DNA from: Octopus sinensis
Taxonomy: Eukaryota
NCBI RefSeq assembly: GCF_006345805.1
Contig: NC_043000.1
Coordinates: 143,778,001-143,842,000, forward strand
Reading direction: 5' to 3'
Length of the DNA stretch: 64,000 nt
Shown: positions 17,903 to 43,652 of the stretch, in pieces
How the letters are laid out: each line of letters opens with the position of its first letter
Position numbering within the stretch: the stretch's first letter is position 1
Notes under the pieces: model-generated
Seen by the model: the letters and a program-made list of their open reading frames with translations, nothing else
Database searches by the model: none
What the model was told of the DNA's origin: nothing
Position numbers and translations under genes: made by a program

Positions 17903-18036
<134 letters not shown>

Positions 18037-18222
18037 TATATCGTATATATATATATATATTTTTTTGATAATTGATAATTTTCTGAATAATTCTGAGATT
18101 GAATCGGCAGTATATATTTACTGTTGATAAGTTTGGCGCGAATACGTCAGTCTTGAAAATTTTAAGTCAGATATCCCGTAGGCTTCGATACAGACGCCTC
18201 GTGTATATTGTCTCTCCCAGGT

Positions 18223-18318
18223 CTTTACTGATGAAGTGTAACCTATGGTAGATTGGCTTAATTTAATTTAATTAAGCTAATTTAATCATTAATGACACAG
18301 AACGTGCTACGTCTAAAG
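18223..18318 (+). ncRNA. Type I hammerhead ribozyme, copy 1 (one A missing from GAAA)
   Basis: CTTTA-CTGATGA-A-GTGT...ACAC-A-GAA-CGT-GCT-ACG-TC-TAAAG. Confidence 0.6.
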
Positions 18319-18691
18319 GATGAATTAGGGTAAATGTTTTTAAATTTTCACCTAATTTCTGAATTAATAATACTTGGCGGTGGAGTTATGGCTGCTCTTT
18401 CTGGTGGACGAGTGACCTGTTGGGGTCACTCCTAAATCGTTATATTTATATATTTGTCGATGACTATTTTCTCTTTTTCACCAGGCCGCTGTGGTTGCGA
18501 TAAATTTCTATTGAATTTTTTGCTACCCTAAATTGACTAATTGATAATTTTCTGAATAATTCTGAGATTGAATCGGCAGTATATATTTACTGTTGATAAG
18601 TTTGGCGCGAATACGTCAGTCTTGAAAATTTTAAGTCAGATATCCCGTAGGCTTCGATACAGACGCTCGTGTATATTTGTCTCTCCCAGGT

Positions 18692-18788
18692 CTTTACTGA
18701 TGAAGTGTAACCTATGGTAGATTGGCTTAATTTAATTTAATTAAGCTAATTTAATCATTATGACACAGAAACGTTGCTACGTCTAAAG
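18692..18788 (+). ncRNA. Type I hammerhead ribozyme, copy 2 (complete core)
   Basis: Stem I CTTTA/TAAAG; CTGATGA; long stem II GTGT...AGATTGGCTTAATT/AATTAAGCTAATTT...ACAC; GAAA; stem III ACGT-TGCT-ACGT; predicted GUC cleavage after 18783. Confidence 0.85.
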
Positions 18789-19160
18789 ATGAATTAGGGT
18801 AAATGTTTTTAAATTTTCACCTAATTTCTGAATTAATAATACTTGGCGGTGTGAGTTATGGCTGCTCTTTCTGGTGGACGAGTGACCTGTTGGGGTCACT
18901 CCTAAATCGTTATATTTATATATTTAGTCGATGACTAATTTCTCTTTTTCACCAGGCCGCTGGTTGCGATAAATTTCTATTGAATTTTTTGCTACCCTAA
19001 ATTGACTAATTGATAATTTTCTGAATAATTCTGAGATTGAATCGGCAGTATATATTTACTGTTGATAAGTTTGGCGCGAATACGTCAGTCTTGAAAATTT
19101 TAAGTCAGATATCCCGTAGGCTTCGATACAGACGCCTCGTGTATATTTGTCTCTCCCAGG

Positions 19161-19257
19161 TTTTACTGATGAAGTGTAACCTATGGTAGATTGGCTTAAT
19201 TTAATTTAATTAAGCTATTTAATCATTAATGACACAGAAACGTTGCTACGTCTAAAG
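19161..19257 (+). ncRNA. Type I hammerhead ribozyme, copy 3 (complete core)
   Basis: TTTTA-CTGATGA-A-GTGT...ACAC-A-GAAA-CGT-TGCT-ACG-TC-TAAAG; predicted cleavage after 19252. Confidence 0.8.
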
Positions 19258-19388
19258 GATGATTAGGGTAATGTTTTTAAATTTTCACCTAATTTCTGAA
19301 TTAATAATACTTGGGGTGTGAGTTATGGCTGCTCTTTCTGGTGGACGAGTGACCTGTTGGGGTCACTCCTAAATCGTTATATATATAT

Positions 19389-19445
<57 letters not shown>

Positions 19446-19490
19446 TCGTTATCGTATATCGTATATAATATTATATATAATATATATATA

Positions 19491-19716
19491 ATACCGGAGT
19501 AAACACATAATGTGAAACAAGGTGGGAAAAAAGAGTACTCAAATACCAGTGGTAGAGTAATATGCTTTATTTTAGCAGCAGAAAATTCAACAAATCTGTT
19601 ACTCGAGTTTCTCGTTGCCGTTCATCAGACAGTTTCTAGCAAAAACTGTCTGATGAACGGCAACGATAAACTCAGAGTAACAGATTTTGTTGAATTTTCT
19701 GCTGCTTAAAATAAAG
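19491..19716. mobile_element. Palindromic mini-element with back-to-back minimal hammerheads
   Basis: 19565-19716 is a near-perfect inverted repeat centred near 19638; a homologous copy lies in opposite orientation at 43653-43866. Confidence 0.8.
19596..19632 (-). ncRNA. Minimal type I hammerhead motif (complete core)
   Basis: Minus strand CTGT-CTGATGA-ACGGCAACGA-GAAA-CTCGAG-TA-ACAG with palindromic stem III; the plus-strand mirror (19646-19683) has GAAA changed to TAAA. Confidence 0.75.
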
Positions 19717-19801
19717 TATATATATATATATATATATATATCTATATCTATATATATATAATATATACATATATATATATCGTATATCGTATATATATAT
19801 C

Positions 19802-19836
<35 letters not shown>

Positions 19837-20547
19837 ATATATATATATATATAATATATAATATTATAAATACGTTCCTTGATGCGAGTGTAGGGAGTTT
19901 TTAAGCTTCTAGCTGTAGGGCAGGTATAGAGAACAAAACATAGACTGTAGGGGATAAGATACAATAAAAGTAACATCGACAGTAACAACGTTTTACCAAT
20001 ATAACAGTTTGGAGGAAATAGTTTCTAAATAGCTAGGTTACAGTTAGCACCTAAAGATGCTAAAAATATGAATAAAAATCCAAATTGGAGTGAAACAGGT
20101 AAAATGCACGCTGTATATGGTTCTTAGCTTGCTGAACTAAGAAACATATGCTCAAAGTATCTAATCATTAGGCTGAGGTTACTTTAATGAAATGAAGAGT
20201 CAGCCACAACACAATAATAGAAATTCTGAGTGACAATTAACCTTAAAGACGAGGGTATATAATTTGAATCATGCCCCAGATATTTTTCCTAAACATCAAT
20301 ATGAAATCACACCGATCCCGAAAAGGTAAGGAGCTGTAACTCCCTTCAAATGAATCTGAGTGTGTTAGAACCTTAACTTAAGAGATAAACATATGATATC
20401 TTTTGTTCGGGATTTGGAAAATGATGGGCTATGCTCAAGGATTTTTGTGGGCCAGTGAGATCTCATATAGAGTAGACTAGTTTGTTTCCCTTACGGACTC
20501 ACTTCACTGTATAATGAATCAATTATCAAAGTTAACGTGTTTGTATA

Positions 20548-20739
20548 TTGATTTCAAATTTTGACACGAAGCCATTTTTTGGGAAAGGGTAAGGTGATTG
20601 CATCAATTTCAATGCAAAACTGGTACATATTTTATGAATTACGACATGCTTGGTGCAATTTGAACTCAACGTACAAACGAATGAGATGCCGCGAGGCATT
20701 TTGCCCGGCACAGTAGCGATTCTGACAAATCATCGCCTT
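20548..20739 (-). mobile_element. Decayed SINE family D (tRNA head, Nin/Deu-like central region)
   Basis: ...ACTGGTACATATTTTAT...AATTTGAACTCAACGTA...GGCATTTTGCCCGGC...GATTCTG...TCGCCTT; colinear with 29053 and 55876. Confidence 0.65.
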
Positions 20740-20777
20740 TCATGTGCATGTAATTTGTTTTTTAAATCAGCTTTTGT

Positions 20778-21010
20778 CTTTTGATTGTTTTAGTCATTAG
20801 ATTTCGACCATCTTGTTGCACTGCTTTGAAGAAGTTTTAATTTAATGAATCGCACCCGTTACTTTCTTTAAACTTCGTACTTATTCTCCCCGTCGCTTTT
20901 ACCGATCCGCTAATGTACGGAGTCACAGAGATCTAAACACAACAACACAGGTTGTCAAGTGGTGGGATGGGGGAAAACACAGGCAGAAAGACACTCCCGC
21001 CTCACACATA
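20778..21010 (-). mobile_element. Decayed 3' half of SINE family A
   Basis: TTGTTTTAGTCATT...GTACTTATTCT...CCGATCCGCTAA...GGTTGTCAAG colinear with family A. Confidence 0.6.
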
Positions 21011-22359
21011 TATATTAGCATTTAATAAATCGTAAGGCCTACACCTGGTATTTTCCCGGTAAGGCTTGTTCATTGGCTTAGTGTTCGCTGAGTATGTTAT
21101 TAATGAAAGAAGGCAGATGGAAGATATATAAATCTTTGTCGATCATTAAAATATTTTCGTCCTATTTCGCATCAATGCCTAGCAGGTAGGTATAAAGTAC
21201 AGTTGGTTTAGGTGTACCCCTCTGTGTAGATCAGTCTCATCAGGTGATCTCAGTTGTTTCACACCTTATTTCTTAATGGTTACGTCTTGGTCTTCGTATA
21301 TAGAAATAGCAAGTTAAGGAAAACAGCTTCATTCTTATAGAAGGTTCATAAGAAATATGAGAAACAAAAAGAACGAGTACAGCAAAAAATTATTACATTT
21401 TTTCGCTCTATTGAGACTAAATTTGTAGATACCTCATCGATGTGTGCATATTACACCCATGCAATAATTCATACATTTAGTAGTACACATTTTGAATTTC
21501 CGTTCTCTCAATCACTTTGTGTATTTTAACTGTCCTCTTAATATCACAAGATTTCTACTTTGAAATCGTTTTACAATTTTAAACGCACATATTTACGTAG
21601 CATATAAGGAGGATAGAGACATTCTACTAATTAATGAGTTACGAGAAACAAATTATATCACAATGATTTAGTTGCTAAAAAATCTAACAGTGGCTGCAGC
21701 TATGTGTAGAATATAAACTCCATTGATCCCCTAGCAATGAAGTGAAAACTGAATTCAAATAAATTTGGTATTAATTAAAAATGATATTTAATGCACCATT
21801 AAAATATCGTAAATACAGAGACGGTCATACACAAATCATTATCAAATACATGGAGATGTGTGATAGAATAATTTATTCAACATGATGTCTGCGTCTCCAT
21901 GAGATTTATACTCTATTTATGGCGTATTTATTGATTTAGTTTTTTACAAAATACCTCACAAAAATACACTTTCCATAATCTCATAAACGAGAATGAAAAG
22001 AGATTACCATAATAGTGTAAAAAAAGTCACAGAAAAATGGCAAAACACAAAGATTCGCACTTATACAAACACGTATACATTCATATATACATAAATAAAT
22101 AATATATAAATCAACATGAATAGATATGTAATACATATATGTATATTTAATATATACATACGTATACATATACATGCATATACGTATATATATATATACA
22201 TATATGCATATATATATACGTATATATATATATATATACGACGTATATATATATATATATAAATATATATATACATGCATATACGTATATATATAGATAG
22301 ATAGATATATAGATATATTTACATGCACATGTATGTAAGTATAAGTTCATTAATATATG

Positions 22360-22390
<31 letters not shown>

Positions 22391-24446
22391 ATGCATATAA
22401 TCATTGTCACGCGGTCGAGTCTTTCAGTGTTGATGAATAAATGAAGGATATTTTCTGCATGCCCACTTTTTTTTCTGAGATATTGTAAATCCATTATATA
22501 GGAAATAAAATATAGTATTTGATATTTAGTTCTGGCAAATAATTCATATCGATACATGCATGAACAGGATTTCATTTTGTTAATATTTTTTTCAAAAATG
22601 TCAGAATGCTGGAATGTGTATGTTAAGTTGGTGACAGCTGTTTCGTTGTACTTTGGATACAACAATAAACCTCAGGGAGTTGAAACAGCAACAATTAACA
22701 ACATAAAGCTACTCGGTGATAGTAATTTTCAATTATCAGGAAAATAGCTTGCGGGTTTCATATTAAATATCAGTGTCAGAATTTCAATTGTATATCTCTG
22801 TTGTCAATTATGGGAAAACTATGTAACAAATAACAAAGTTTCTTTGTATGATTAGAAATTTATCACAGAAAGCAGATATTTGGCTAAGGGAGAGTAATAT
22901 TTCAAGCATATAAAAAAGCAAAAATTTTTTTATGCCACATACCAGAGCACTCGTTGAAAAAGAGTTTCAAGGTGATCTGAATTTTAGACACCATTTAACA
23001 GATATGCGTGTTGGTCTTTGCCTAACACTGATTGGTTTAAAACATAGAGCAACAATATGAAGCAGAGATCTTCAAATATTCCTATCATTGTTCATGTGAA
23101 AGCAGCTTGTCAGCACTGCATGCCATGCAATAAAGTATGTTGCACTTTAGTGGGAAAAAAGTTGCTATGTTGATGTTCACGAATCGTATAAATCATAGAC
23201 AATAATCCCCGGGTAGTCTCACCTATTCCAAAATGAAATTTTTAAGAGCTGAAGTTAAGACTGTTGCTTTTATGTGACTGTGAGGAAAGCCTAATGTTAT
23301 CAAAACAATCAAATGTACTCTGTGGCAATGTCTCTAAGTTAGTATCTTGGAAATTTATACGTGTGATAATCTTGAGTATAATTTCCGGGCATGGTTATGA
23401 AAATGGGGACTCATAACTAAAAGGTATGATGGTACGCTTTGTTGGCCAGTAAAGATCAACAATCAAAAACACAACATAAAACCCATAAATATTCATGGGA
23501 TTTAAAAATTCTAGGAAACAAGAAAACAAGAATAGAAGAAACTCATTGAACGATCTTCATGTACATAAGCACACTTCAAATTTGCGTTCACCTATGCAAG
23601 AAAGGTATTCACTTGTACCATATATATGTGCGTTTGTGTGTATCTGTGTGTGTCTGTGTGTGAGCGCGTGAGCATATGTAGTTCCGCTTGTGTGTATACG
23701 TATACATATAATATACACGTTTACACACATACTTGTGTTCAATGTGTATATGAATATATTTATATTAAACATGTATCTGTGTGTGTGTGTGTGCGTGTGT
23801 GTGTTTGTGTGTGTGTGTGTGCGTGCGTGTGTGCGTGCGTGTGTGTGTGTGCGTCTGTGTGCGCGCGTGTGTGTATGTGCGCGCGTGTGTGTGTGCGTGC
23901 GTGTGTGTGTGTGTAGATTGTATTTTACGAATGGATTGAAAATGAAGTGCACTCACAATTTTCTTGCGGCAATAAAGTCAATCAATGATGATAAAGTAGC
24001 CAAATCAACGGAACTTACCTGAAAGAGAAAAGAAATACAATAAATTCAGGATGACAGAAATATCTTCAAAAAATGCTACATATTTCTACATTAATTAAAG
24101 TTTCAAAATTATATGCTTGTAAGATGAATATGATATTTCATATTTCTTAAAATATCTTCATTCGTATTAATATGACATAAGTTGAGCATTTTTCAATAGC
24201 TATATATTCACAATATACATATTTACACATTTATAAACTTACATGCTAATTTACATACATCATACGTATGTGTGCATTCGGGTGTGAGTGTGTCTACATA
24301 CTCGTGTGTGTGAATAGATATGTGTAGATTGTTAAACAACCTTGCTTGAGGACATTGGGTGTAATATATTTTGTAAACAGTGACCAGTGACCAAAATCTC
24401 TATAGAAATAGGACAAGGTATCTTCAGATAATATATATATTCGTCT

Positions 24447-24931
24447 ATTCTTTTATTTCTTTCATTCATCTAAAACTGTCCATGCTGGGGCGTCACTTTT
24501 TGTCAAAGAAATCGACCCCAGGACTTTTTTTTTGTAAGCCGAACACTAAATCGATCGGTCTGTTTTGCCGAACTACCAAGTAACAGGGATGTAAACACAC
24601 CAACATCGGTTGTCAAGCGATGCTGGGGGCTCAAACTCAAGCAAACGCACGCATACATACGCACATACACATATATGTGATGGGCTTCTTTCATTTTCTA
24701 TCTACCAAATCCACTCACAAGGTATTGGTCGGCCTGAAGCTATAGCAAAAGACATGCGCCCAATGTGCCATGTGGATTGACTGAAACCGGAACCATGTGG
24801 TTGGGGAGCAACCTTATTTCCACTCAGCCAGGCCTGGCGCCTTGAGGTGATGTTTTCTACTATAGCTTCGGACGAAAGAAAGCCTTGTGGATGGATTTGG
24901 TAGAAGAAAGCTGAAAGAAGCCTATCGTATA
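24447..24931. mobile_element. SINE family A (minus, 24447-24842) abutting an inverted fragment of the same family (plus, ~24840-24931)
   Basis: TCTACCAAATCCACTCACAAGG (~24700) versus CCTTGTGGATGGATTTGGTAGA (~24885). Confidence 0.8.
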
Positions 24932-25043
24932 ATATATATATATTATAATATATAAAATATTATTAGAGACAAACACTATTGCAAAAACAAACAAGGAAAG
25001 ACTAATCAATACATACAATTTTAATAAATAGTAAAAAAAAACG

Positions 25044-25088
25044 CCACTACAATCGTTTAATTGTCTTGATCGACAATCTTTCAGGTGG
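25044..25088 (-). ncRNA. Decayed type I hammerhead motif in a short element nested in (TA)n
   Basis: CCAC-CTGAAAGA-TTGTC-GATCAA-GACAA-TTAAA-CGATTG-TA-GTGG: stems I and II intact, two core changes. Confidence 0.55.
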
Positions 25089-25835
25089 ACTTCAATAATT
25101 AAGTGTCAAATTAAAATCGATTTAACCTAAATCTGATTTTTTCCCTGTAAATTTGGATTTATTCCCCTATATTTATTATTGATCTATAGATATATACAAT
25201 ATATATATATATATCTATATATAACATATTGGCATATATATATATTGTTATATATATATATAACTATATGCCTTAATATATTATATCTAAAGATTATCAT
25301 ATATATCATGCATATATATATTATTTATATATATATAAATATGCATATATATATAGATAAAGATATATATATGCAGATGTGTTATCTATATATATAGATA
25401 TAATAGATATATTAATATAGTCCATTGTATATAAATATATATATATAATATATATATATATATATGTAATCAAATATAAATATATATATATATATATATT
25501 AGGTATATATATAAGCTATATATATATATATATTATATATATTAGCGATATATATAAGTGGAACAATTAAGGATAATTCTTAATAAGGGATCTTAACATA
25601 GAAATTAGCGGGGTGTAGCTAGCGTGAAAACCTCATAAAAGAAAAAGAATTCGAACATAATTTTTTTCTTTTGAACCCAAAATTAATATATCTATATTAT
25701 AGAGGGCATTAAAACACAATTACACATTAAATGCTCACAACGTGAGGCATTGATTGTAATAATGCCTCTATACAATATAGATATTATATACTATATATAT
25801 ATATATGTATATATATACTATATATGTATCTATAT

Positions 25836-25880
<45 letters not shown>

Positions 25881-25926
25881 ATATATATATATATGTATAG
25901 ATATATATATATATATATTATATATA

Positions 25927-25997
<71 letters not shown>

Positions 25998-26205
25998 TAG
26001 TCAATCCAAACATGAACAAGTAAGAAAAGAAACAACAACAAGGATGATGTGGAATAAGTACAGTGTTATTGGACGCTCAGGAAAGGAAAGAAAAGAAAGA
26101 GGATTTCACGTTTCGAGCGGAGATCTTCATCAGAAATATAGAAAACGTCCAAAGAAGGGAAGACGGAGAATGAAAAATCGCCAACTATACACACGCGCTC
26201 ACACA
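25998..26205 (-). mobile_element. Short (TA)n-associated element with minimal hammerhead motif (26103-26137)
   Basis: ATTT-CTGATGA-A-GATCTCCGCTC-GAAA-CGT-G-AAAT; homologous to 63080-63277 (shared TTTCCTGAGCGTCCAATAA). Confidence 0.7.
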
Positions 26206-26264
26206 CAACACAACACACACACACACACCACACACATCACACAACATATAATATATTTATATAT

Positions 26265-26295
<31 letters not shown>

Positions 26296-29052
26296 GAAAA
26301 ATATGGGTGTTTAGTTCACTGGTGATCTACACGACTAGGTACGCTGAGTAAGTGCTGTAATGGATTAGCCGGTCTCCAAGGTTATAACATACACGGGAGT
26401 TATGGAAACATTATAAATTTCCCATATTGGGATATATAATTGTTAAAGAGAACAACAAAGTGAATTCAAGACAAATATCTCCAGTCATATACATTATTAT
26501 TATTGGAAAAGCTCAAAGTCTTGTAGATGTTCCTGCGATATACCAAAGTATGTGACATTCAGTCATCGGAATGTAATACTAGAGTGGAATATGGTTACCG
26601 AATCTTGATTTGAATTACTTCATCAGATGGTGCTATTAAGTTAGTCATGGCGTGGACCTAAACTAACCGAAACCTATCAAGGTATGAAAGTATCAGAGTA
26701 TATATACATACACACTTATATATATACATACATATATATATATATAATATATATAAAACCTGGATAAAAAGTAGATATGTTTCGACCAAAGATTGGTCCA
26801 GGGCATGTTCTAACTTAATAGCACCACCTGATAGGATTATCTAAATACATATATATTATTACAATATATATATATGTATATAATATATATATATATATAA
26901 TATATTATATATATATATATATATCTATATATTATATTATATATATATATATATATTGTATCTATATATATATGATATATATATTATATGATATAATATA
27001 ATTACATATACACACACGCACACATAAATATTATACTTTTATAAGTGTGTGAGTGAGGAGCAGTTGCAGATGTTAACGAACTGTATAAAAAGTATCAATT
27101 TGAAGCCTGACCGAATATGTGAATTTAGTTACATGTACCCAAACACACTTGCATGTGCTTATACATTTTCCTTGTTTGCTCTGTTCTAATATGCATTGAG
27201 TCTATTAACAAGCTCAAATCTCCTCACCGTAATAAATGAAGAATTCTGGTTTCCCCATCTGTTTCTGCTACAGTATTACCGATGTGTCTAAAGGTGAAAC
27301 GGATTAATTAATTTGTGATTTTGTAATTATATCTCCAACAATGATGCATGTTCTCATGGGAGACACTTCGCTTCTTAGCAAAATCTTTATCCTTACAATA
27401 CTAGGTTAAAACTCCTCAAACGCATACATAATTGACAGTTGACTAGGAAGTGGTAGTGGAATAGCAAGCTGTGTGTATCTGGCATTAGAGCTGAAAGCTC
27501 TTTTAAGTGTGAGTGATGGTTACGTTTCTGCTTCTGTTAGGGGTTACGGCTGGCGATGGTGCTCTTGTAAGGATTTTCATTTAAGTACGGTTTAAGTCAA
27601 TATATTAATCTAGTGACATTTTGTTGTAACTCATTTCGTTTGAATAAAATCCACATTTACATCTATCTCTAGTAATATCCATAAATATCAATATCAACAT
27701 CCGCGTCTCTAGAAAGATGAGAATTACAATCTGATTCATTCTCTGCAACTCTCAAATATACATACATTATCGTTTACTAAGTTTCCAACTATCTCTTCTT
27801 TTACAAGAAATCTTCTTGCTTTTGATCAGCATTGCAAATACATTTGTTCTCTTCTTTACTGCTTTCATTCCAACTTCTTTATTTAGATACATTACCGAAC
27901 ATTTCTTCCAAATCCCCAAAGGTTTGCCTACCACCATCCCACTAGCTACCAATTCCTTAGAAATGTTCAGTACTTTTGCAGAATTTAATCCGAAATGACG
28001 GAAAGAAAAGAAGCATCTCATAAGAGTAAACTGTTTATCCCAGCTTAATCTCGAAAACGTCACTGATAAATTCACATGATATAAATATATACAATAAAAT
28101 ATAAATATTTGAAATGAGCAAATAAAGAAGGGAATAAAATTAAGTAGAGTATTTTAACTTTAGAAAAAAGTTTCCTCAAATAAAAATAATTAAAAAAGTA
28201 AGCAAACACGATTGGCATTTTGTTTTACTTTTTCCTTATCAATGTTTGTTTTAAAATTTTTATTGTTATTTCTTTCCCGTTTCGTTTATAATATTCTCTT
28301 TTTATAGACAGAACTCTTCAACTTTTGTTCCCTTGATACACAAGTGTACAAAGGTTAAGTAAGGTTATTGACAGATGGAACTTCATTATTAATTTATCAT
28401 TTTCAATATAATGTTCTTTTTTTTTCCAGATATTTGTTTATCGTAAGTTGTATGTGGCGAAATTTCAAGACAACCGATCGAAGCATCATGAGGTGTTTAG
28501 TAACATCAATGCATGCTCTTAGTGCAGGTCACTCTATTTAAGGATCTCCATTTCCTTGATGAAGAAAATAGCACCAGTGAAACACTGGTGTCGAACGTAT
28601 TGACGAAGATCTTCCCATCAAAATTGCTGACCGAGTTAGAAACCAATTCGGTCGGTACAGTATTGGACTTGAGGTAAACATTTGTCTTGCGGTATTTCCC
28701 CCAACTCTGTACACTGGGAATCCAAGTCTCTCGGATGTTAATTTCTCCGTTCATGCATTCTCGACCGTTTATATAAAGTATTAGTCAAGAACTGTGGCCT
28801 GCATTATCCCCTCCTCAGTATGTCATGCATTGTGTGCACATAAAAATATAAACAATTATTAATTAAGTTAGATAACAGTAATGTCTGTAGAATATCACAT
28901 TAAAGATTTATAGTATTTTTTATGTTGATTTCCCTATCTGAGTTGAAATGGGTTTTCTTCATATTTTATGACTAATTAACAACTATTAAAATAAATGACT
29001 ATGACTCTTAAAATTGGTAGGCTTGTATTGTAGTTCGACGATATTAATGTTA

Positions 29053-29245
29053 CTTTCAAATTCTGTCACAAGTCCAGCAAATTCAGGGTTGGGGGTAACA
29101 CATTTACACTGATCCTAGTACTCACTTCAGCTGGTACTTATTTTATCGGCCTCGGAATATTAAAACAGCAAAGACAACTTCTGCAGAATTTGAACACATA
29201 ATGTAAAAAGCGGACGAGTTACCACAAAGCGTTTTGCTACCTTAG
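29053..29245 (-). mobile_element. Decayed SINE family D
   Basis: GTCACAAGTCCAGCAA...CTGGTACTTATTTTATCGGCCTCGGAA...GAATTTGAAC. Confidence 0.65.
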
Positions 29246-29360
29246 TCGTTATTCATATAATCACTTATCAAACAGAACACGCAGAGAAACACACATATAT
29301 ACAATACCGCACACGCATAAGCAATGGTACACGTGGAGATAACTGAACATGCATATATAT

Positions 29361-29719
29361 ACTCTTTTTACTTGTTTCAGTCATTTGACTGCGGCCATGC
29401 TGGAGCACCGCCTTTAGTCGAGTAAATCGACCCCAGGACTTATTCTTTGTAAGCCTAGTACTTATTTTATCGGTCTATTTTGCAGAACCGCTAAGTGACG
29501 GTAATAAACACAGACACACAAACATACACACACACACATATATATATATATACATATATACGACAGGCTTCTTTGAGTTTCCGTCTACCAAATCCACTCA
29601 CAAGGCATTGGTCGGCCCGGGGCTATAGCAGAAGACACTTGCCCAAGGTGCCACGCAGTGGGACTGAACCCGGAACCGTGTGGTTGGTAAGCAAGCTACT
29701 TACCACACGGCCACTCCTG

Positions 29720-29722
<3 letters not shown>
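29361..29722 (-). mobile_element. SINE family A with a short internal deletion
   Basis: Very similar to the 12597 copy but lacks the GGACGTAAACACACC...GGGGGAC block. Confidence 0.9.
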
Positions 29723-29778
<56 letters not shown>

Positions 29779-30001
29779 GATATTTTATGTGTGTATGTGT
29801 TCGCACGAGGATATGTGTGCATGAGTGTGTGTGTGTGTATGTGTGATGTTTATGAGTGAGTATGCATGTGCATTTACAAACGTGAGAAAAGAAATACCCA
29901 ATAAAATATTCTCGAATAAGTAAAACTGATATATGTCTCTCTTTCATTCATAAGTGTACATGTGTGTGCATGTGTGTGTGTGTATGTATTTATGTATGTG
30001 T

Positions 30002-30048
<47 letters not shown>

Positions 30049-30637
30049 CGGGTGTATAATTGACGATTTACGCTGTACAACCGATACGAATGAGATCTGT
30101 GTAGAAAGAGGCAAAAATTACATTCAGACACAATTTTAAGGTAATTTTTTTCAAGGTAATTCGCTACAGTTCTTCATATAACCACTTGCGTTCTTCTGTA
30201 GATTTATGCATACAAATATACATGTGCACATAGACTTATAAATCCATACCGACATACGTGTGTAACATGTTTGCACTTACACGTCTGTATATATATGAAT
30301 GCAGTTCGTTCAAGTTGCTATATGTAATTTTTATGTACTTGCCTTGCGTGTGTATATGTGTGCTCATGCGCGAACTCTGAGTTTTCACACGTGTGATGTA
30401 TTAGTGCAAGAAAGAAGAAAATAAGAACAATTAAGCAGCTAGTGAATGGCTTTCTGCTCTTATACTTGTCAAGAACACGCTTTCGTCTAAAAGCTTTTTC
30501 TAATCTATTTCCTCGGAACTGGTTCTTTTTCAAATCCCACCACTCACAGGAATATTCGAAATATATTATTATCAATCTATCACAAATGATTGCACACTAT
30601 CTATTGATATATGATATTGCAGAGAAAGAGCTACTGC

Positions 30638-30638
<1 letters not shown>

Positions 30639-30701
<63 letters not shown>

Positions 30702-30791
30702 TATTATTATTATTATTATTACTATTATTATCATCATCATCAGTATTATTATTATTATTACTATTATTATTATTAGTAGTAGTAGTAGTAT

Positions 30792-30872
<81 letters not shown>

Positions 30873-30900
30873 GAGGAGGAGGAGGAGGAGGAGGAGGAGG
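30639..30900. repeat. Compound trinucleotide microsatellite (TAT)n-(AGT)n-(AGG)n
   Basis: Direct read. Confidence 0.95.
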
Positions 30901-32628: not shown

Positions 32629-32667
<39 letters not shown>

Positions 32668-32671
32668 ACAT

Positions 32672-32810
32672 ATGCGGAAGTTGGCGGTGTGTTAAGAAGC
32701 TTGCTTCCCGACGTGACACCTTCGATGAGGTCATTCAGCAATAGCCTCTAGCCTAACAAAGCTTTTGGAGTGACGGAAAATGAAAGAAGCCCGTCTTATA
32801 TATATGTATA
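32672..32810 (+). mobile_element. Decayed 5' part of SINE family A
   Basis: GTGTGTTAAGAAGCTTGCTTCCC...GACGGAAAATGAAAGAAGCCCGTC. Confidence 0.6.
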
Positions 32811-34229
32811 TATATGTGTGTGTGTGTCCATGTGTGAGTGTGTGTGTCTGTGTGTCTGTGTGTCTGTGATTGTGTGCTTTTATATATGTGTGCACTATAT
32901 GTGCTTGCATATGTGTGTGTGTACCTCTGTATCACTCTGTGTGCATGTCTGAGTGTGTGTGTGTGTGTGTGTGTGTATGTTTTGCAACTCTGTACCGTGT
33001 TTGTATGTATGTATGTGCATCTCCATATGTGTGGACGTGTGTCTCCATATGTGTCCTTGTGTGAATTATATAACGTCATGTGTTTCAGTCCTCATTTGTG
33101 TATGTGTGCTTCTCTGTTCATATAACCTTTGTACCGTCTGTATCCTGATCTATTTACTTTCATATCCATATGCATACATACATCGATGTACATAACAGCC
33201 CACTAACAAATCTATTCTACCTGTGTAAACTGGGCATGGGGCTATTTTACGATATCTACTATGTATATTTCCTATTTAGTATTGGGGAAGTTTCATTTAT
33301 GAGGGCGTACACGTGTATTTGTCTGAGTGTTAGGTCCTTTGGGTGCTTGGATAAGATGCAGATATGAAGTTGACCCAGGGTGCCTCCATGTTGGTATGGC
33401 AGATTGTTTATATATATATATATATATAAACAATCTATGTGGTGGCGTATGTGTGTGTATTTGACACACACAAACACATACACAGGCACGTACTTTATTT
33501 TTGATGCAGCATATTGTAATATGACGTAGCAGATTGTTACATATAAGGCAAGCAATTGTCATTATTTCACACACGTCTTGCTACTTGGGAGTAGATCTGT
33601 CACATAAAGCATTTTTGCGTGCCTGGTACGTTAATTTAGAATAAATGCACCACTATATATAGATGAATATAATAATAATATAATATAATCATCGAGAATT
33701 TGTTGCTATTTCTAAGGTCTGATAATATTGCCACATAGATTCCTCATGGAAGCGGTTCATTGTGAAATACTGTCCTCTTTATATATTTATACACTTAATT
33801 ACCTTTCTAAAATCTTTTTTCATTTTATTTCAAAAGTTCTCAGTAAGAAAATGTGTCTGGAACATAGACTTGTGAGAAATCAGCTAGCTGTTAGTTTCCT
33901 GCAAATTGTACAGCCGTATATTTGATTTGCTCGATTCAGAATATATGCAGACTTTCAATCCTAAACACCATCTATACATGTGAAAGCCACGTAATTATGG
34001 ATGTTCGGAAATCTTTTAGCCGGTCTCTAGGATTAAAAATGTAGGTATTGCATCTCTTGCTCAGGTTTACCGAAATGGAAGCATTGATCGTATTCCTTCT
34101 CCCTTTTGCTTGGTCTCCTGTTCAGCTCGTTTCTGTGTTGAGAAACGACGAAATTCTTTCCGTGGCCTCGTCTCGGCAAAACTACTTACTTTATACTAAC
34201 CTAGATTGTGGAGGATGTAGAAAATAGAG

Positions 34230-34530
34230 AATACCAAACGAGTTCCCTATGGATACCGTATTTATTACGAGTGGCTTGTATACGGTATCCATAGGGAATG
34301 AGTTTGGTATTTTATTTATTACACACGAATAAACGACCATATTTTATTAAACCCAATAACTAAATTCTTCACGTTTAGTTGTAACTTATTAAATGACAAA
34401 AGTAGTGCCATCACCGTGACCTCAGGTCATCACCATGGATTGACCAATCAGAAGCAGCGCTCGCAGTATCTGACATATGTTTAGTTACCAAAAATATCTC
34501 AAAGTGTTCTCACTCACATGTGTGTAATAA
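34230..34530. mobile_element. Putative non-autonomous DNA element with hairpin and short inverted repeats
   Basis: Hairpin AATACCAAAC..TTCCCTATGGATACCGTA / TACGGTATCCATAGGGAA..GTTTGGTATT (34230-34311) and TTATTACACAC / GTGTGTAATAA (34316, 34520). Confidence 0.5.
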
Positions 34531-35964
34531 TATATAGTAATAAACTGGTTTAAGACATTAGGTGTGGCTATCAATATCAGTAGAAATTATTTTCTACTTG
34601 GAAAAGAAATGACTATTTAATGACATAATGAATGACTTAAATTTACTGCCAGCTAGCGTTTGACTTACTAAGGGTTAAAGAAAAAAAAAAGAATGTAAGA
34701 CAATTATAATGTACTTAATTTCTGTGGGCTAACATGAACAAGAGTAACAAAACTGAGTTATTTTCAGTGAAGACCAAATGAAATATATTTCCCGAAAAAT
34801 CTATTTAACAGGAAATGTAAAACCACATTTTGTATGAAAATGTATGATTTCACCAGGTCTAATATTGAAAGGTTGGAAAATAAGAGATAGTCATGACCCA
34901 CATATACAATAGCTTGGCGTGAGATTTGATCCACAGACGATTTGTGTCAACATGTATTGTATGCAATAAGCGATTAAATCCAAAGAATCGTTGACGTGGC
35001 CAGCAACACGCCCTGAAATCTGACAAGTGACAGAGACTAATATCAGCACTACAATATAAGACCACACAGACAGACAGACACACACACACACACACACACA
35101 CATACACACACAAACACGTGCGCACGTACACAAGCATGCATAGACAAATAGTTATTTAAATCGATAGATAGATAGTTACATACATACATACGTTCATAAT
35201 GTATAGATACATACATACAAAGATAAAACTGAGAGCAGAAGGGGGATACCTTTCAGTTAATTTAAACAATGAAAAGTTAATTTAGCAGCAGACAATGTTT
35301 TGAACATATGCAATGCACTATTTTCATATTCAGGAATTGATTTTTCTATAAAGTGTTATGTTTTATTAAAGTTGTAACACGTTGTTGTGTTAATAAAAAA
35401 ACGCATATTTATCATCGATTTTGTTCTTCTATTCTTTACCAATATTTAATTTACAATACAAAAAAGAACTATTTAAAGAAAATAATCAATCAAGCTCTTC
35501 AGCTTGTTGAATAACGTTAGTGAATTCGTGACGTTTTATTCAAAGACATTTCCCTGTTTGCAGTCTCCTCTGAATCAGTTTGTGAGAACCAGTACACTCA
35601 TTCACCATTTCTATCATCATTACATATGCGATTGTATTCATATTGTTAGCTGTAAAATTTATCTTTCATATGCATTCACTATGCTAATTAGAATTTATGC
35701 GTGCAAATACAATATATGTATCTGCGTGTCTATGTGTGTATAATATATTCGTAAAAAATACATATGTACGCAACAGAACAGCAAACGCTTGTTTCATCTA
35801 ATATATATAATGCGTTATTCGTCGGAATTGCTAGAGGAATATACAAGGATGGCCCTATGCATTGTTTCGTGTATCAGCGTGTTTAAAATTATGTATAAAA
35901 TGCCGATAAAATTTGAAAGGTGTATTCAGAGATAGCATTTAGAAACATTGACATACCTTTTGCC

Positions 35965-36228
35965 TTAAGTTTGCTTCGGTCTTTTGAGTGCGGCCATAAT
36001 GGGACATCCCTTAGAAGGGTTTGGTCCGAAAACTAAATACTAACACTTATAATATCGGTTTCTTTTCGTAGATTATGGGGAAGTAAACAGACCAACACTG
36101 GCTATCAAGCAGTGTGACAGACAAATACACACATGCACAAACACTGACACACACAAACACATATATACACGAAGAGCTTCTTTCAGTCTCCCTCTATAAG
36201 ATCGACTTCAAAGTCTTTTGTCGGTATA
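35965..36228 (-). mobile_element. Decayed SINE family A
   Basis: TGCGGCCAT...TATCGGTTTCTTT...GTAAACAGACCAACACTGGCTATCAAGC...GCTTCTTTCAGT. Confidence 0.6.
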
Positions 36229-36721
36229 TACTTGTAATAAATTATGATAGTTGTATGGCTGTCAATGAAGGAATATTTCCCCCAAAATATATTTCACTCT
36301 GTCACTCTTCATCATCAATATTCAATATACTTGAACAGGTACTTTACTGTACTCAGTTGGAATATATATAATATTGAGGCACGGTTCAGCTGCTAATAGA
36401 CCAAGAATGACGCAAACAAAAGTGTTGCCTTAAATCTTAAGGCGAGCTAGTAAACATATGAAAAGATTTCAAAATGCATCTGTGTATTATCTATTGTCTC
36501 AAAATAACGTGTAAAATTTATATGAAAGTATATATCTAGGCATCAGTTTCTGTACTAATAGATATAAATTACTCGGCTTATAGCTTCTCTGAAATATCAT
36601 TTTCTCTGCTTTACACGAAGATAAGCATTATAGTGCTACATTTTTCCCCCTTAAATTGTAGGCTATGAAGCAAGCACATTCACAATTAAAGAAGTATATC
36701 AATATAACACCACAGCATACA

Positions 36722-36784
<63 letters not shown>

Positions 36785-36831
36785 GTGTGTGTGTGTGTAT
36801 GTGTGTGTGTATATGTATATCTGCCGTAGTG

Positions 36832-36867
<36 letters not shown>

Positions 36868-37473
36868 CATATTACCAACAGAAATTATTATTCTCTTTCG
36901 CATCTCAGACAAGTAAACACATTGATTCAAAGTTTAGAAGCAGATAAGTAAAACTGATATAAAAGGAGTATAGGTTTTGTAATGCTTTATCTAGAACAAT
37001 ATTATTCATGTATTACTAATAATCTACCACGTAATTTATTTCTTCATCCAAGACACTGTATTATTCGTTTAACAAAACACTATCTAAATTGATATGTTAA
37101 AGGTAAAAACAACATTGAACTGAGATAAATATTATAATCTGTATTAAATTGTCTAACCAATCCACTGTTTTACTCGTGTTTATCTAGTGTTTTCAGAAAA
37201 ATATATTTGAATGTAAAAGTAATAGAGAAACATGTTGCATTTCCTCGTGCATATTCTCATGTGTTCCATTGCACCTACACCCATACACACATGTGGCACA
37301 CAGAAACGCGAGCGCGCACACATACACATACACACAAACACGTATGCATTTACATATATATTATAAATATTTGTATATAAAGCCAGTATTTATAATATGG
37401 AAACTTGTTGCTTTCATGATCAGTATAGTAATTTTTATAATTATTAAGAATTGTAAAATAGTACCATTAGATA

Positions 37474-37505
<32 letters not shown>

Positions 37506-37646
37506 TAGTAGTAGTAGTAGTAGTAGTAATAGTAGTAGTAGTAGTAGCGGTGACAGTGGTAGTAGTAGTAGTAGAAGTAGTGGTGGTGGTGGTGGTGATG
37601 GTGGTGGTGGTAGTAGTAGTAGTGGTGGTAGCGGTGGTGGTGGTGA

Positions 37647-37695
<49 letters not shown>
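37474..37695. repeat. (AGT)n/(GGT)n microsatellite
   Basis: Direct read. Confidence 0.95.
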
Positions 37696-37696
<1 letters not shown>

Positions 37697-38490
37697 AATC
37701 GAATTGTGCCACCCTTGTATATTCCTCTAACAACTCCGACGATTAAAGCATTAGTCATCCCGAAAATATATTTGATGGGACTTGCCGAAAATGTCGCAGA
37801 ATTGGATGGAATCCAGAAACATGTGGCTGCGAAACGAACTTTTTACCTATAGAATACATTGCATATGTTGACTAAAGAAATTATACGCGACATCATTTTC
37901 TTAATATTTTGTGTCTTGGAGATTTGGGAATTAAAGAATTGCGAAATAGATCAACCGAATTCTTTTGTTTCTTACTATCATTTATTTCATTTTCTTTTAT
38001 ATTTTTCTGATACGTCAATATCCGTAATACGTCAGTGCTTTGATTAGTTAATATCCGTATTTCGATACTGGTACGTCGATCTTCTAGAAATGGAGGAGAC
38101 ACCTCGGAAATTGAATATGATTACCTACCTAAACTTAAATTTGAATAAATGTTTAGAAAACGATTTGTGTTTTGGCAGGCCTAACATATTTTTTCCACAT
38201 CAAAAGATTTCAAGATTGAAATAGTCGGCAAGTAATGAGGGAGAATGTTCGAGAAACTATGCAACATAATTTGAATAATTCTTGCGTAGTTTATAAAGCC
38301 AGTCAGTTACACAAATACCAAAAGAAACATATATATATACACACATTTATATAAGCATATAAATATATGCACACACATACATCTATGTATAATATACGTG
38401 TATATGCGCACAGCTATACATATAGAAAGGCATATATACGCACACATACATACATATGGAAATAAATATGCAAATATATACAGTATAAGC

Positions 38491-38556
<66 letters not shown>

Positions 38557-40053
38557 TACATACACATACACAAACGCGTACGCATGCACACATATATGCA
38601 GATATATACGCATTTACAGTTACACATATACATACATAAACACTCAGTATACATGGCCATTTTAATATGTGCGTGTATGTTCATGGTCATATGTGTGTGT
38701 TTATATGTAACAGCAAAGATCTGGCGGTTGCGTCAATGCAAATTGTATGACGAAGATCATTCAGTCTAGGTATACTTTACGTCATAATGAATGGTCACTG
38801 CACTTATAAAAGAATTTCTCTTGCTCGGGCTATCAGAAGTTAAATGAAATGTAATGCCAGCATGAATGAGTGGGAAGAAACAAGCTACACTCGAAATCTC
38901 TTTGACACCTACCTCGCTCCATTATAACTTTGGTGGATGTTTGATGGTTTCATGGTGTTGCTTGTCAGTCACCTGACATTTGCTTTATGCACTAAGAATG
39001 TAGCAATACTGCCACAAACTGACACAAACCCACACATGCTTACATATATATTTATATATAACTAACACGGAATTTGGTTGAAATAGTGTAAGAAAGTGTT
39101 TAGTAAGCTAGGGTTATGAAGTGGGTAGGTGACGAAAAGTTATTGAACAAATATTTATAATTCTATAGCTCATTTAATAGAGATCATCGCAGTACTTAAC
39201 TGTTTTTGTACATGCATCATAGCCATCGATTCACGGAGGTTGAGGATGATACGATGTTAGAACAAAGTTAGTATGAACATTCTTCAGCTGTTTACATTGT
39301 CCATGCAACAAAATAAAGAAACTAGTACCACGCGAATTTCTGATTTGAAAGATATCTATTCGGAGCTTGTTAAGCGATAACTCATATTGCAAAGCAATTC
39401 TTCATAGCTTCCAGCATGTAAAACCACGTAGCGCAAAAGTATCAAGAAAGGACAAAAAAAAAACATACTAAATCACATGGTCAAGCACAATTACGTTTCA
39501 GAGGCTCATCTCGAAGCTAAATATGCGGATTTCAAGCGAAGAAGTAGTTCAGCTGAAACAATGAACAAAACCATGAGAAAGTAGGTTATTAGTATTCCTG
39601 ATACTTCATTATATACCTTTCAGTAATCATCAATCAATCAAATCGATATGTGTCGTCTAATGGAATGAGGGTTAACCAAAATCAGCTATATGTACTTCGT
39701 TACTACGTTATAGATCGGGTCTACATTGACGCTTGGTAGACTGCATTTTACGGGATTAGGTGTTTAACGTAACCAAACAATTTTAGCACTAATTGCTATG
39801 GAAATTTGACGTGGATGGAGCGACAACTTACTATGTATATAGAAATATATAAGTACACACAATACACAAAGATATACATAAATACTTGCACTCACATGCA
39901 CACACAGACAGAGTACTACACCGTTAACGTCTGACGTTATGCGGTTACACACACAAATATATGTTACAAAACAAACCACCAAACGCTTACATGCTTATCG
40001 ATATGTGTATGCCAATATGTATATACGCACATTTATACAAATATATAATGAAG

Positions 40054-40086
<33 letters not shown>

Positions 40087-42725
40087 CGAGCGAAATAGAG
40101 AGATACATATATTAATAAATAGCTGAATACACAGGTAGACAACACGAAAGCATATGCATAGTGTTTACATGTGTGCGTCTGTCTGTGAGTACGTGTGTGT
40201 GTATGTGTGTGTTTGTGTGTGGTAATTAGTGTCGAAAAGAACGTGTGCAATAAATTGCTGTCATGAAATGGGCACCTTTGAAGAAATTGTGAAATACTTA
40301 GAAATGAACGTAAGAGAAGCTAAACGATTGCAACCATGTAAATTGCAGATGAAAGTAACATACACGTTAAAAGAAAAGGGATGCAAAGGAGAAGATGATA
40401 TTAATATTATGTTTTTCATTTGGTACTGAATTATGCAATTGGATGGGAGTACATATATAGGCCATCAGCTAAAATATAGTTAATTATCGAAGGTTATAAA
40501 AACTGAAGCATGAGATAAGAGACAGATATGCGTACACGATATATGCAAATATGGCAGTACACATAATGAAACACATTAACCTATATACAGTTATCTTACG
40601 AGAGAAAAAAGTGCTGAGTAGGAAGATTGCATCTTATCTTCTGTAGCCTACCTACAGTGGAGGATAGGATAGACAAATAAAGATAGATAAGGACAGGATG
40701 TTAAAAAGCGAAAGAGAGATGATAGAATGATTAAATCGTACAAAGATGATAGAAATTTGGAGATAGAGAGCGGGAGTAAAAAGAGAGAGAGAGAAGGGGA
40801 ACGGGAGATAGAAATGGGTGAAGGATTCGGGAAGGTATATGTAATAGTAGCTGACGAGATATATGAACTTCAACAAGTTATAACCACCTTAGCTAATTCG
40901 TAGCTTCATATTAACCCTGCCTGCAATACGACTAAGCTCATGTGTCAGTGAACATATCCTCATTTATCCATGCATTGCATTGATAACATTATTAGATGTA
41001 TATTTCAATTTTAAGATATTGATGGTTGATTTTAACTATATTTGGTTGCTATATGTACTATGTTCAGCGATAGCTCAGAGGTTTCATATTTGTGTGATGT
41101 CACACTTATTGACGACGTGTGTCATGTCACATTTATTGTCGACGCGCCGTATATACACGCACAAAATACATGTTAAAACACACACAAACTCTAACATACA
41201 CACAACACACTCACACACGCCTACACATACATATATGTGAACTTTAGGTTAATTATAATATGTTTGTGACATATTTTAATTTTCGAAAAGCAAATTTACT
41301 GCATTTAATGTTGAGGAAAAAATTCAGTTATGGTAAAAGGTGTAAAAACACCATATGTATAACAGGAAACATTAATGGCCTTGCTAAATCTTTGACGATG
41401 ATTATAAGCTATTGGAACAGCAAAATGTACAGAAGATCATTATATTAGCAGTAACATAACTTGGGAGAAAGAAAGAATTTCTTCAAGTGTATTAATGTGT
41501 GTTCCCGAGTGCATTTATGCGTGTCAGTGTTTTAAAGTTTAATCCTGTATCACAATATGTGCATATGCGTAAAATTAAATGTATTACATTTAATTAAAGA
41601 ATACATCGTAGGAAGACCAACAGCACATACACTCCCTTATTATATGCAAGCGAAATAATTACTAATATGGGTGACTCATTGAAACAGTGAACACAGGAGG
41701 CAAGCAAACCATATTTGTTAGGACAAAAATTTAATGATAATTAGGTTATATATTTGTATATAATGGGGCTCATACACTTATATACTACACAAACAAGCAA
41801 ATACATGCTATGATGAAAATACAAATGTGTTCTTATAAGTTATATTTCTAAATATACAATCGAGATTTCTACGATATGATACCTTCATCTTCTAAAGGAA
41901 GTAATGTTGGCGTGTTAGCTCCCATGTTTACTTAGCGCACGAGCAATACGTTTCATTTAGACATCATTGAAAGAACTGATATTTCCTAACTCTTACATTT
42001 ATTAAGCAGCGTGTAAACATCTGACTTTCTGCGTCCACGTTGGCTGTTCATTTATCTGTGAGACCTGTGTACTTTGTATGTGTGTTCATTTTATTATTCC
42101 GTAGTGCCATGACAAGTCCTTCATCAGTAATTGTCTAATTGGATGGGTAAATTGTTGAGTACTTCTCTACTGTCCACAGCAATTTTGATGACAAAACATG
42201 ATCCAGCTACCATGTGCCTCAATCGTTTTGCGAATGTAAATGTCATTCATTATGTATATACAAATTTAGAAGGAAATTCACACATATATGGACATGTATC
42301 TAATCTATACACTTGTATTTCCACACACACAGACACACATACACACACACACATATAATCGCATACATGTACTATATGTGTGTACGTAAGTATGTATGCA
42401 TGTGTCCACCTACCTACCTCACCTGCCTAACTAATGTATCTTTCTATCTATCAAGGTTTCTATGTATATCAACTTTTATTTGTATATATTATTCCTTGTT
42501 ATATTAACCATAAATCCATTACGTCACACTGTGCAATGCTTGATGATGCTTTTACTTTAACACATATAGTATATATGTGCATTTGCGAATGTGTATATAT
42601 ATATATGTGTGTGTGTGTGTATGTATATATATACATATATATATATATATGTGTATATATATATATATACATACATACAGATATACATACATACATACAT
42701 ACATACAACATACATACATACATAT

Positions 42726-42757
<32 letters not shown>

Positions 42758-42888
42758 AAATTCGATTATCAGCGCGCCAAAAGTAGAGGCATTCGAAAGA
42801 TACATCCGAACGTAATAGGTTGTACTTTTTGCATGCGGGACTCCGGTACCGTTTTTCATCTAGTACAGCATATTATGCTCATAACAAA

Positions 42889-42948
42889 CTACGCTGATGA
42901 AGTTACAGATATCCTTGTGATATTAATAGCTGAAACTGCAGTACGTAG
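42889..42948 (+). ncRNA. Type I hammerhead ribozyme (complete core)
   Basis: CTACG-CTGATGA-AGTTA...GATATC/GATATT...TAGCT-GAAA-CTGCAG-TA-CGTAG; stem I CTACG/CGTAG; palindromic stem III ACTGCAGT; predicted GUA cleavage after 42943. Confidence 0.85.
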
Positions 42949-43386
42949 GTAATTATTCCATTTAGTATTTTTCTTTTGTCTCATCCATTGCTTTAGGTCG
43001 TGCTGAATTTATTTTATTTGAGAACAAAATCTTTGTGGAGAATGGCGATTTGACGTCTATATCTAGCATGTGACTGTCCACCTTTTCGTGTTCAGTCCTT
43101 AATTGGTATATATAAATATTTTAATCTTCGGATTCTTTTAATGTGCTAGACCACTGGTTTTAATTGACTAATATCAATTTCTACCCTTAATTTTAAATAT
43201 GAAATATATGTTCTCAAACGATAAATTGACTGCTGCTAATTTATTACTGCAGGCTAGTTTTCGATATCAGCGCGCCAAAAGTAGAGGCATTCGAAAGATA
43301 CATCCGAACGTAATAGGTTGTACTTTTTGCATGCGGGACTCCGGTACCGTTTTTCATCTAGTACAGCATATTATGCTCATAACAAA

Positions 43387-43445
43387 CTACGCTGATGAAG
43401 TTACAGATATCTTGTGATATTAATAGCTGAAACTGCAGTACGTAG
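43387..43445 (+). ncRNA. Type I hammerhead ribozyme (complete core), second copy
   Basis: Same motif; predicted cleavage after 43440. Confidence 0.85.
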
Positions 43446-43652
43446 GTAATTATTCCATTTAGTATTTTTTTCTTTTGTCTCATCCATTGCTTTAGGTCGT
43501 GCTGAATTTATTTTATTTGAGAACAAAATCTTGTGGAGAATGGCGATTTGACGTCTATATCTAGCATGTGACTGTCCACCTTTTCGTGTTCAGTCCTTAA
43601 TTGGTATATATATATATATAATATATATATATATATTATATATATATATATA

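Follow-up and report, generated by a model that had tools for sequence, protein, structure and literature searches.

Metazoan retrozymes of the non-long terminal repeat (non-LTR) kind are described, in the portions of two papers covered here (PMC7229834; bioRxiv 10.64898/2026.07.22.740005), as non-coding units in tandem, with a GC content under 50% and a single type I hammerhead ribozyme in each. Self-cleavage and RNA circles have been demonstrated for them, and Penelope-like elements (PLEs) are proposed as the mobilising enzyme, with circular RNA as the template (same portions of PMC7229834 and bioRxiv 10.64898/2026.07.22.740005). In this study, we analyzed a 64,000-nt stretch of the Octopus sinensis genome (GCF_006345805.1, NC_043000.1, 143,778,001-143,842,000, forward strand; hereafter the window, to which all positions below refer unless another locus is named), which carries two arrays of this type, array 1 of a family named F1 (18065..19382) and array 2 of a family named F2 (42761..43612). 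Comparison with other copies in the same genome revealed that the 3' ends of each family fall at two fixed sites, A and B, and that every classifiable two-armed insertion has one arm ending at A and the other at B. We consider it probable that the F1 and F2 arrays are non-autonomous retrozymes of PLE type, copied by a borrowed enzyme with reverse transcriptase (RT) and GIY-YIG domains that primes both nicked strands at two protein-positioned RNA sites.

F1 and F2 resemble the described retrozymes in their tandem units, their hammerhead and their GC content below 50%. Their units (469-500 nt) exceed the 150-450 nt in the covered part of PMC7229834 and lie within the 51-972 nt given in that of bioRxiv 10.64898/2026.07.22.740005. 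In the portions covered, the two retrozyme papers contain no map of ends, of inverted arms or of (TA)n junctions, all of which were mapped here. Moreover, 21 of 57 Xenopus families are reported to have pseudo-LTR (pLTR) homology to an autonomous PLE (bioRxiv 10.64898/2026.07.22.740005, in part), whereas none was found here.

Endonuclease-bearing PLEs, as described in the covered parts of PMC3846280 and PMC8557442, are truncated at the 5' end, form partial tandems and carry an inverted copy that is itself 5'-truncated; a tail is present at only one of their two ends, a hammerhead lies near the 3' end, and their targets are (TA)n or AT-rich. F1 and F2 share these features; they differ in consisting of the terminal repeat only, with no open reading frame (ORF), and in having arms of up to 10 units. 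For PAc, a Poseidon element of the green anole, in vitro work (Frangieh et al. 2024, PMC11167929) showed that the RT starts at two internal sites flanking the tail and that both strands are cut and extended; a dimer is predicted. Its starts lie in an AC-rich stem-loop that shows no homology to the cut DNA, and no difference in start site between the strands was seen (PMC11167929). F1 and F2 resemble PAc in the two probable start sites bordering the tail, the probable extension of both strands, the AT-rich target, and a start unrelated to the ribozyme cut. Here, in contrast, site A has 5-8 nt of possible pairing, and each two-armed insertion uses A once and B once. Both the element class and the two-site footprint are already known, and what is new is mechanistic detail. 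No description of the strict A+B pairing or of the F1 and F2 families was found in the openly readable literature, supplements excluded. The copying of retrozymes into DNA and the formation of PLE inverted repeats and tails are named in print as open questions (PMC7229834, PMC8557442 and PMC11167929, in the parts covered).

Two end sites and their pairing within insertions

An earlier note on this DNA had described both arrays as ending at a UA-rich run of the unit that merges into genomic (TA)n, with the hammerhead on the + strand and neither end at the ribozyme cleavage site. All of this was borne out, sequences included. Array 1 (+ strand; 2.8 head-to-tail units of 469 nt, single-armed, with its 3' end at site A) follows its unit up to TATAT 19378-19382 and then passes into (TA)n (junction and downstream tract, 19368..19490, +), and the internal F1 copy at 18441-18452 reads TATATTTATATA. 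Array 2 (+ strand; 1.7 head-to-tail units of ~498 nt, likewise single-armed and ending at site A) stops at 43612, where its end matches the internal TATATATA at 43107-43114 (junction and downstream (TA)n, 43597..43652, +). Upstream, array 1 is preceded by a (TA)n microsatellite (17903..18060) and array 2 by a TA-rich one (42594..42757). The + strand carries type I hammerhead cores at 18697 and 19166 in array 1 and at 42894 and 43392 in array 2, and the predicted cuts, at unit positions 251 (F1) and 176 (F2), precede the array ends by 130 and 172 nt.

To place these ends in context, the octopus's own genome (2.7 Gb) was searched, and the best-scoring 39 of 935 candidate places from the first F1/F2 search and 40 of 1339 from the second were scored. 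The 77 places fetched, together with the two window arrays and minus four duplicates (L077, L089 and L090, copies of L076, and L137, a copy of L103), gave 75 loci. Two complex F2 loci were left out of the arm tests, and 'odd' rows, mostly misfiled internal copies, were left out of the junction-overlap scoring.

Across the 75 loci, 122 of 127 outer 3' ends lie at two fixed sites per family. The 64 F1 ends comprise 33 at A and 29 at B, and the 63 F2 ends comprise 34 at A and 26 at B, with site B located ~95 nt downstream of site A in F1 and 88 nt downstream in F2. A (TA)4 or longer tract is present at 124 of the 127 outer ends, compared with 10% of background windows, and both flanks carry (TA)4 in 67 of 75 loci. 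The 5' ends are scattered and indistinguishable from a uniform distribution (Kolmogorov-Smirnov p=0.64 and 0.08), and only 1 of 123 falls within 5 nt of the predicted ribozyme cut (2.8 expected), so that there is no pile-up at the cut. The earlier note had expected a fixed 3' end, a variable 5' end and (TA)n flanks in other copies. The flanks, the pile-up of 3' ends and the 5' scatter are all present, but each family has two end sites rather than one. Its copying span of 1.7-2.8 turns did not hold up, since arm lengths range from 0.1 to 10.4 units.

Internal copies of both sites can be seen in the window. In F1, site A (18431..18453, +) comprises CCTAAAT at 18431-18437, TATAT at 18441-18445, which is the modal junction, and a second, seldom used TATATAT at 18447-18453. 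Site B (18527..18541, +) again has the CCTAAAT motif, with the junction at AT 18540-18541, and a second copy lies at 18996-19010. The F1 tail (18908..19010, +) spans the ~95 nt from site A to site B and includes a small ACCAG/CTGGT hairpin. In F2, site A (43097..43114, +) consists of CCTTAAT at 43097-43103 followed by the run at 43107-43114 given above, and site B (43185..43209, +) of CCTTAAT at 43185-43191, the junction ATAT at 43197-43200 and an unused ATATAT at 43204-43209.

The majority of loci (52 of 75) consist of two arms joined 5' to 5' with their 3' ends outward. The remaining 23 are single-armed, and both window arrays, which show only site A, belong to this minority form. Among the classifiable two-armed insertions, A and B are each used by one arm in all 26 F1 cases (binomial p 1.5e-8) and in all 22 F2 cases (p 2.4e-7). 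Single arms end at A in 16 of 23 loci and at B in six. Exact matches to end B followed by (TA)n number 285 in the genome, and the reversed control has none. To remove length bias, 10 F1 and 10 F2 loci were taken from the head of this match list, picked by end B only; an inverted arm ending at A was found in 18 of the 20 and one ending at B in none, and all 18 two-armed loci were A+B.

These results also bear on the possibility that the ends are breaks of the assembly at microsatellites, or that the units spread as DNA-level satellites by recombination at TA runs. The assembly does contain many 1-nt indels, and the UA run of the unit could recombine with (TA)n. Nevertheless, N is present in only one of 138 stored sequences, ~660 nt outside its array, and no gap touches any array; assembly breaks are therefore rejected. 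Ends at site B have no run available for recombination, strict A+B pairing and 5' scatter are not expected from such processes, and neither is the contrast of 285 end-B matches with none in the control. We regard this explanation as highly improbable. The outcomes that the earlier note had named as refuting its idea, namely random 3' ends or assembly breaks, were thus not what the genome contains.

The two arms of an insertion are close copies of each other. Units differ by 0.56-0.59% between the arms of one insertion and by 0.42-0.65% within an arm, compared with 1.75-2.0% between insertions, and 32 private variants are common to all covering units, 15 of them spanning both arms; only seven others are partial (L068 was also left out of the distance and private-variant analysis). 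As the distance between arms is like that within an arm and variants extend across arms, both arms copy one template sequence. Furthermore, arms of up to 10 units cross the cut site repeatedly, and the template is therefore a circle or an uncut multimer; it may be either, for both fit these data equally. In three loci (L110, L130 and L086), arms contain short internal jumps back to the site-A region, which suggests repeated re-priming or template jumps.

A template common to both arms could also be expected if the inverted arm were a snap-back DNA copy of the first cDNA, a self-priming fold-back that has been proposed for PLEs (PMC3846280, in part). The private variants common to both arms are compatible with it, as are copies of a third element, F3, that share one palindromic inner junction, although the F3 query itself selected for that junction. 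However, the inner junctions of F1 and F2 are mirror-symmetric in 7 of 46 cases, with 5.8 expected by chance. There is no correlation between the lengths of the two arms, and the longer one is the A arm in 14 insertions and the B arm, by >190 nt, in 29. The arms are not simple fold-back copies, and we regard fold-back as an unlikely origin of the inverted arm. An overlap of 1-8 nt is found at 21 of 46 inner junctions. In the twin priming of L1, both target strands prime and the inverted arm is joined by microhomology, with the second primer at a variable internal site and arms that do not overlap. Here, by comparison, neither start varies in position, and the same sequence recurs in both arms. 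Taken together, the link between retrozymes and PLEs is made by junctions and not by co-occurrence, and two separately primed arms are favoured over fold-back.

The UA run and the sequence preceding the junctions

Element and (TA)n most often overlap by 5 nt at site A of F1, by 8 nt at site A of F2, and by 2 and 4 nt at the respective B sites (modal values). Overlaps of at least this length occur at a fraction of 0.03 (F1-A), 0.009 (F2-A), 0.25 (F1-B) and 0.057 (F2-B) of random positions, and thus site A sits on a UA run whereas site B hardly does. At site A, the 5-nt overlap is found in 38 of 65 scored F1 ends, with 7-9 nt in 14 more, and the 8-nt overlap in 25 of 39 F2 ends.

The earlier note had attributed the 3' end to annealing of nicked (TA)n DNA to this run, with pairing alone setting the end. 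Beyond the overlaps at site A, two autonomous families also end on UA runs, and in some copies of subfamilies whose run is mutated, the junction has shifted by 3-6 nt, to the next A/T pair. Yet this explanation predicts neither a second site nor the A+B pairing (48 of 48), and the overlaps at B are short. Equal or longer runs go unused: no end uses a 7-nt TATATAT at F1 unit position 48 or the 6-nt ATATAT located 7 nt past F2 site B, and the UA run is not sufficient for end choice. PAc, the PLE studied in vitro, starts at RNA sites without homology to the cut DNA (PMC11167929).

Nor is the run necessary for the use of site A. Six ends at site A belong to F1 subfamilies in which the run is mutated, and their overlap is 1-2 nt where a reference from the same locus permitted scoring. 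In an older F2 subfamily (20 loci, L318-L337, with the false regular-expression match L336 dropped), TATGT stands in 14 of 14 matched internal site-A copies, and eight arms still end there. In F3 (30 loci), every internal copy has a C at the junction, and no short arm has kept it; perfect annealing further 3' would have retained this C, and the run is therefore not needed. Annealing to the UA run as the sole cause is thus largely refuted, and we consider it improbable that pairing alone sets the ends. What stands of the proposal is that site A lies on a longer run than most positions do, and annealing likely affects the fine register at one of the two sites at most.

As side observations on these relatives, the older F2 subfamily shows 65-87% identity to F2 and is more abundant (its tail pattern has 1438 matches, F2 included); its hammerhead core often looks decayed, and the two end sites are kept. 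F3 occurs with its whole layout and the same palindromic inner junction, unlike F1 and F2, in at least 40 genomic places, which were selected by the query.

A mixed arrangement, in which site A depends mainly on base pairing inside a protein-defined window and site B on protein positioning alone, would accommodate the consistently longer overlap at A than at B in both families and the preference of single arms for A over B. On the other hand, only 0-3 nt of pairing is available at site A in the older F2 subfamily and in F3, which use this site nonetheless, and the same motif precedes both A and B. We see this arrangement as possible but rather doubtful.

This motif, CCTWAAT, takes the form CCTAAAT at both F1 sites and CCTTAAT at both F2 sites. 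Downstream of it, the modal junction windows of the four sites have positions +6 to +8 in common. A conserved fold of the tail was rejected as a shared feature: compared with shuffles, the F1 tail has z -2.0 and the F2 tail z 0.1, F1 alone folding better than shuffled sequences.

A proposed two-site priming model and the candidate enzyme

In the reading that we prefer, with a borrowed PLE-type enzyme and two protein-positioned RNA sites, the endonuclease would nick both strands of a (TA)n tract, and one DNA 3' end would prime at site A and the other at site B of an uncut multimeric or circular RNA. Each RT would then extend for a variable distance, and the two cDNAs would be joined 5' to 5' through short microhomology. 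If one strand gave little or no cDNA, a single arm would result, as in both window arrays. Copying would begin a few bases downstream of a CC(U/A)-AAUU-like element. Between 1 and 8 U/A bases close by would pair with the (TA)n primer, and this would tune the register rather than the site. One may further speculate that a PLE enzyme dimer grips a single ribozyme RNA circle by two like motifs ~90 nt apart and carries out rolling-circle reverse transcription from both nicked (TA)n strands simultaneously, with A serving one strand and B the other. The head-to-head array would then be the direct product and the PLE tail would reflect the spacing of the protomers' binding sites, and young families would have acquired UA runs at site A since annealing to the microsatellite primer improves their success. 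We offer this picture only tentatively.

Concerning the enzyme, the earlier note's suggestion of a Penelope-type motor acting in trans appears likely from the PLE-type junction footprint, and intact RT + GIY-YIG frames of 774-780 aa are present in the genome. Of 5029 GIY-YIG candidates, 150 were scored, and 147 of these matched. The young L172 family (L172 2174-6960, L176 and L169), several copies of which are 99% identical, combines a 479-aa upstream frame without a Pfam family with a 780-aa RT/GIY-YIG frame. It has two ends of its own, ~35 nt apart in (TA)n (a tail of ~35 nt), and a variant hammerhead core (U3/A8 as read). The L100 family has the order RT-CxxC-GIY-YIG, and we take it to be Neptune-like from its CxxC linker.

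Autonomous Penelope-like ORFs attached to the units, a search for which the earlier note had proposed, proved not to be the normal neighbours: no RT + GIY-YIG frame was found within F1 or F2 elements, except for a single fusion among 77 loci. In this locus (L100, G000:C3:41857500-41865500, 3856-5729, - strand), a 5'-truncated RT-CxxC-GIY-YIG element is joined in frame with an F2 arm, which stops at site B, and both outer ends lie in (TA)n, making it one TA-flanked insertion. It may be what a template switch would give.

Several candidates for the parent PLE were examined and rejected. The L172 element (780 aa), its relative L170 and the L100 family have no sequence in common with F1 or F2, and every locus sharing end B or the tail pattern belonged to a non-coding subfamily. 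In 1.57 Mb of fetched DNA, a census of junctions detected no coding family with the CCTWAAT motif, and the 20 older-F2 loci likewise showed no pLTR or tail homology to an autonomous PLE, with 150 of the 5029 GIY-YIG candidates scored.

A number of points weigh against the proposed two-site priming by a borrowed enzyme. Neither 50 GIY-YIG loci nor 30 loci of the L100 family yielded an autonomous homologue of F1 or F2. In the copies inspected, the L100 family ends at a single site, which lies on a UA run, and its fusion to F2 is a single case that insertion or recombination could also explain. The tails of 88-95 nt exceed the 30-40 nt given for PLEs (PMC3846280 and PMC8557442, in the parts covered). 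Private variants show no A-to-G excess (10 A>G and 6 T>C; p 0.45 and 0.07), and hence no editing footprint of an RNA step. The census sample consists of the best-scoring 79 places and is biased toward young, long arrays. UA runs lie under site A in F1, F2 and the two autonomous families, and pairing at A may carry more weight than we have allowed. The CCTWAAT motif was chosen post hoc, has degenerated to CCTCTAAATT and CCCTTATTTAATT in the older F2 subfamily and is lacking in F3; it is therefore a lead and no proven signal. A strict signal had been assumed at first, and the older F2 subfamily weakened that assumption. The F1 and F2 tails may also share ancestry.

F1 and F2 provide many young insertions with natural variants, which indicate that a UA run is no more than a help, and they give defined RNA substrates (site A, site B and mutant subfamilies) for the existing in vitro PLE assay.

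Hammerheads, coding capacity and other features of the window

By base counts, the 469-nt F1 unit and the ~498-nt F2 unit have a GC content of ~34%. The type I hammerhead core and helices were recognised by motif and fold in the units of both families, and helices II and III show compensatory changes across subfamilies. Searches of the array units against Rfam gave no family at the gathering score and no hammerhead at E<=5; miRNA-like Rfam matches were dismissed as hairpins of inverted elements. In array 1, the motif of the second unit spans 18690..18790 (+), with the core CUGAUGA at 18697 and a predicted cut after 18783, and the motif gives further cores at 18228 (with a 2-nt gap) and 19166 (+). 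In array 2, it spans 42888..42950 (+), with the core at 42894, a palindromic helix III and a predicted cut after 42943, and a second core lies at 43392. The palindromic helix III suggests that the predicted ribozyme may cleave as a dimer. Plant LTR retrozymes have type III hammerheads within LTRs, a primer-binding site, a polypurine tract and 4-bp target-site duplications; membership among them is ruled out by the type I topology and the tandem layout (the primer-binding site and polypurine tract were not searched for). Neither array contains an ORF of at least 90 aa inside it, and two low-complexity frames enter from the flanking microsatellites. No run carrying the units is recorded as RNA. 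Contigs of four runs contain tandem junctions and related variants; they are silent on strand, ends and expression and were not used as evidence.

The comparison element F3 is represented in the window at 19495..19720, in the same (TA)n as array 1, by a short two-armed hammerhead element whose long arm is on the - strand, with a tail of ~70 nt, and whose short arm is on the + strand. The interruption TCGTATATCGTATA repeats in the microsatellite before array 1 (17990-18060), after array 1 (19383-19475) and after F3 (19717-19800), which suggests a target of 70-90 nt duplicated twice; no general rule is evident by eye in other flanks. Correspondingly, the long target-site duplication hinted at by the flanks of array 1 is not evident by eye in the flanks of the other loci inspected. 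A decayed two-armed relative of F3 (43655-43860, 73% identity) stands directly 3' of the (TA)n of array 2.

Further CUGAUGA...GAAA motifs occur on the - strand at 26133 and 21243, the former resembling the minimal hammerhead of another PLE-derived repeat. Short interspersed repeats resembling SINEs (short interspersed nuclear elements), often adjoining TA runs, form two families, with copies at 5398-5870, 12598-13008, 24433-24842, 29353-29783 and 47755-48187, and also at 10941-11136, 17562-17809 and 59411-59813. Finally, 61949-62675 and 63277-64000 constitute a 727-nt direct duplication with 99.3% identity, either a recent tandem duplication or an assembly duplicate.

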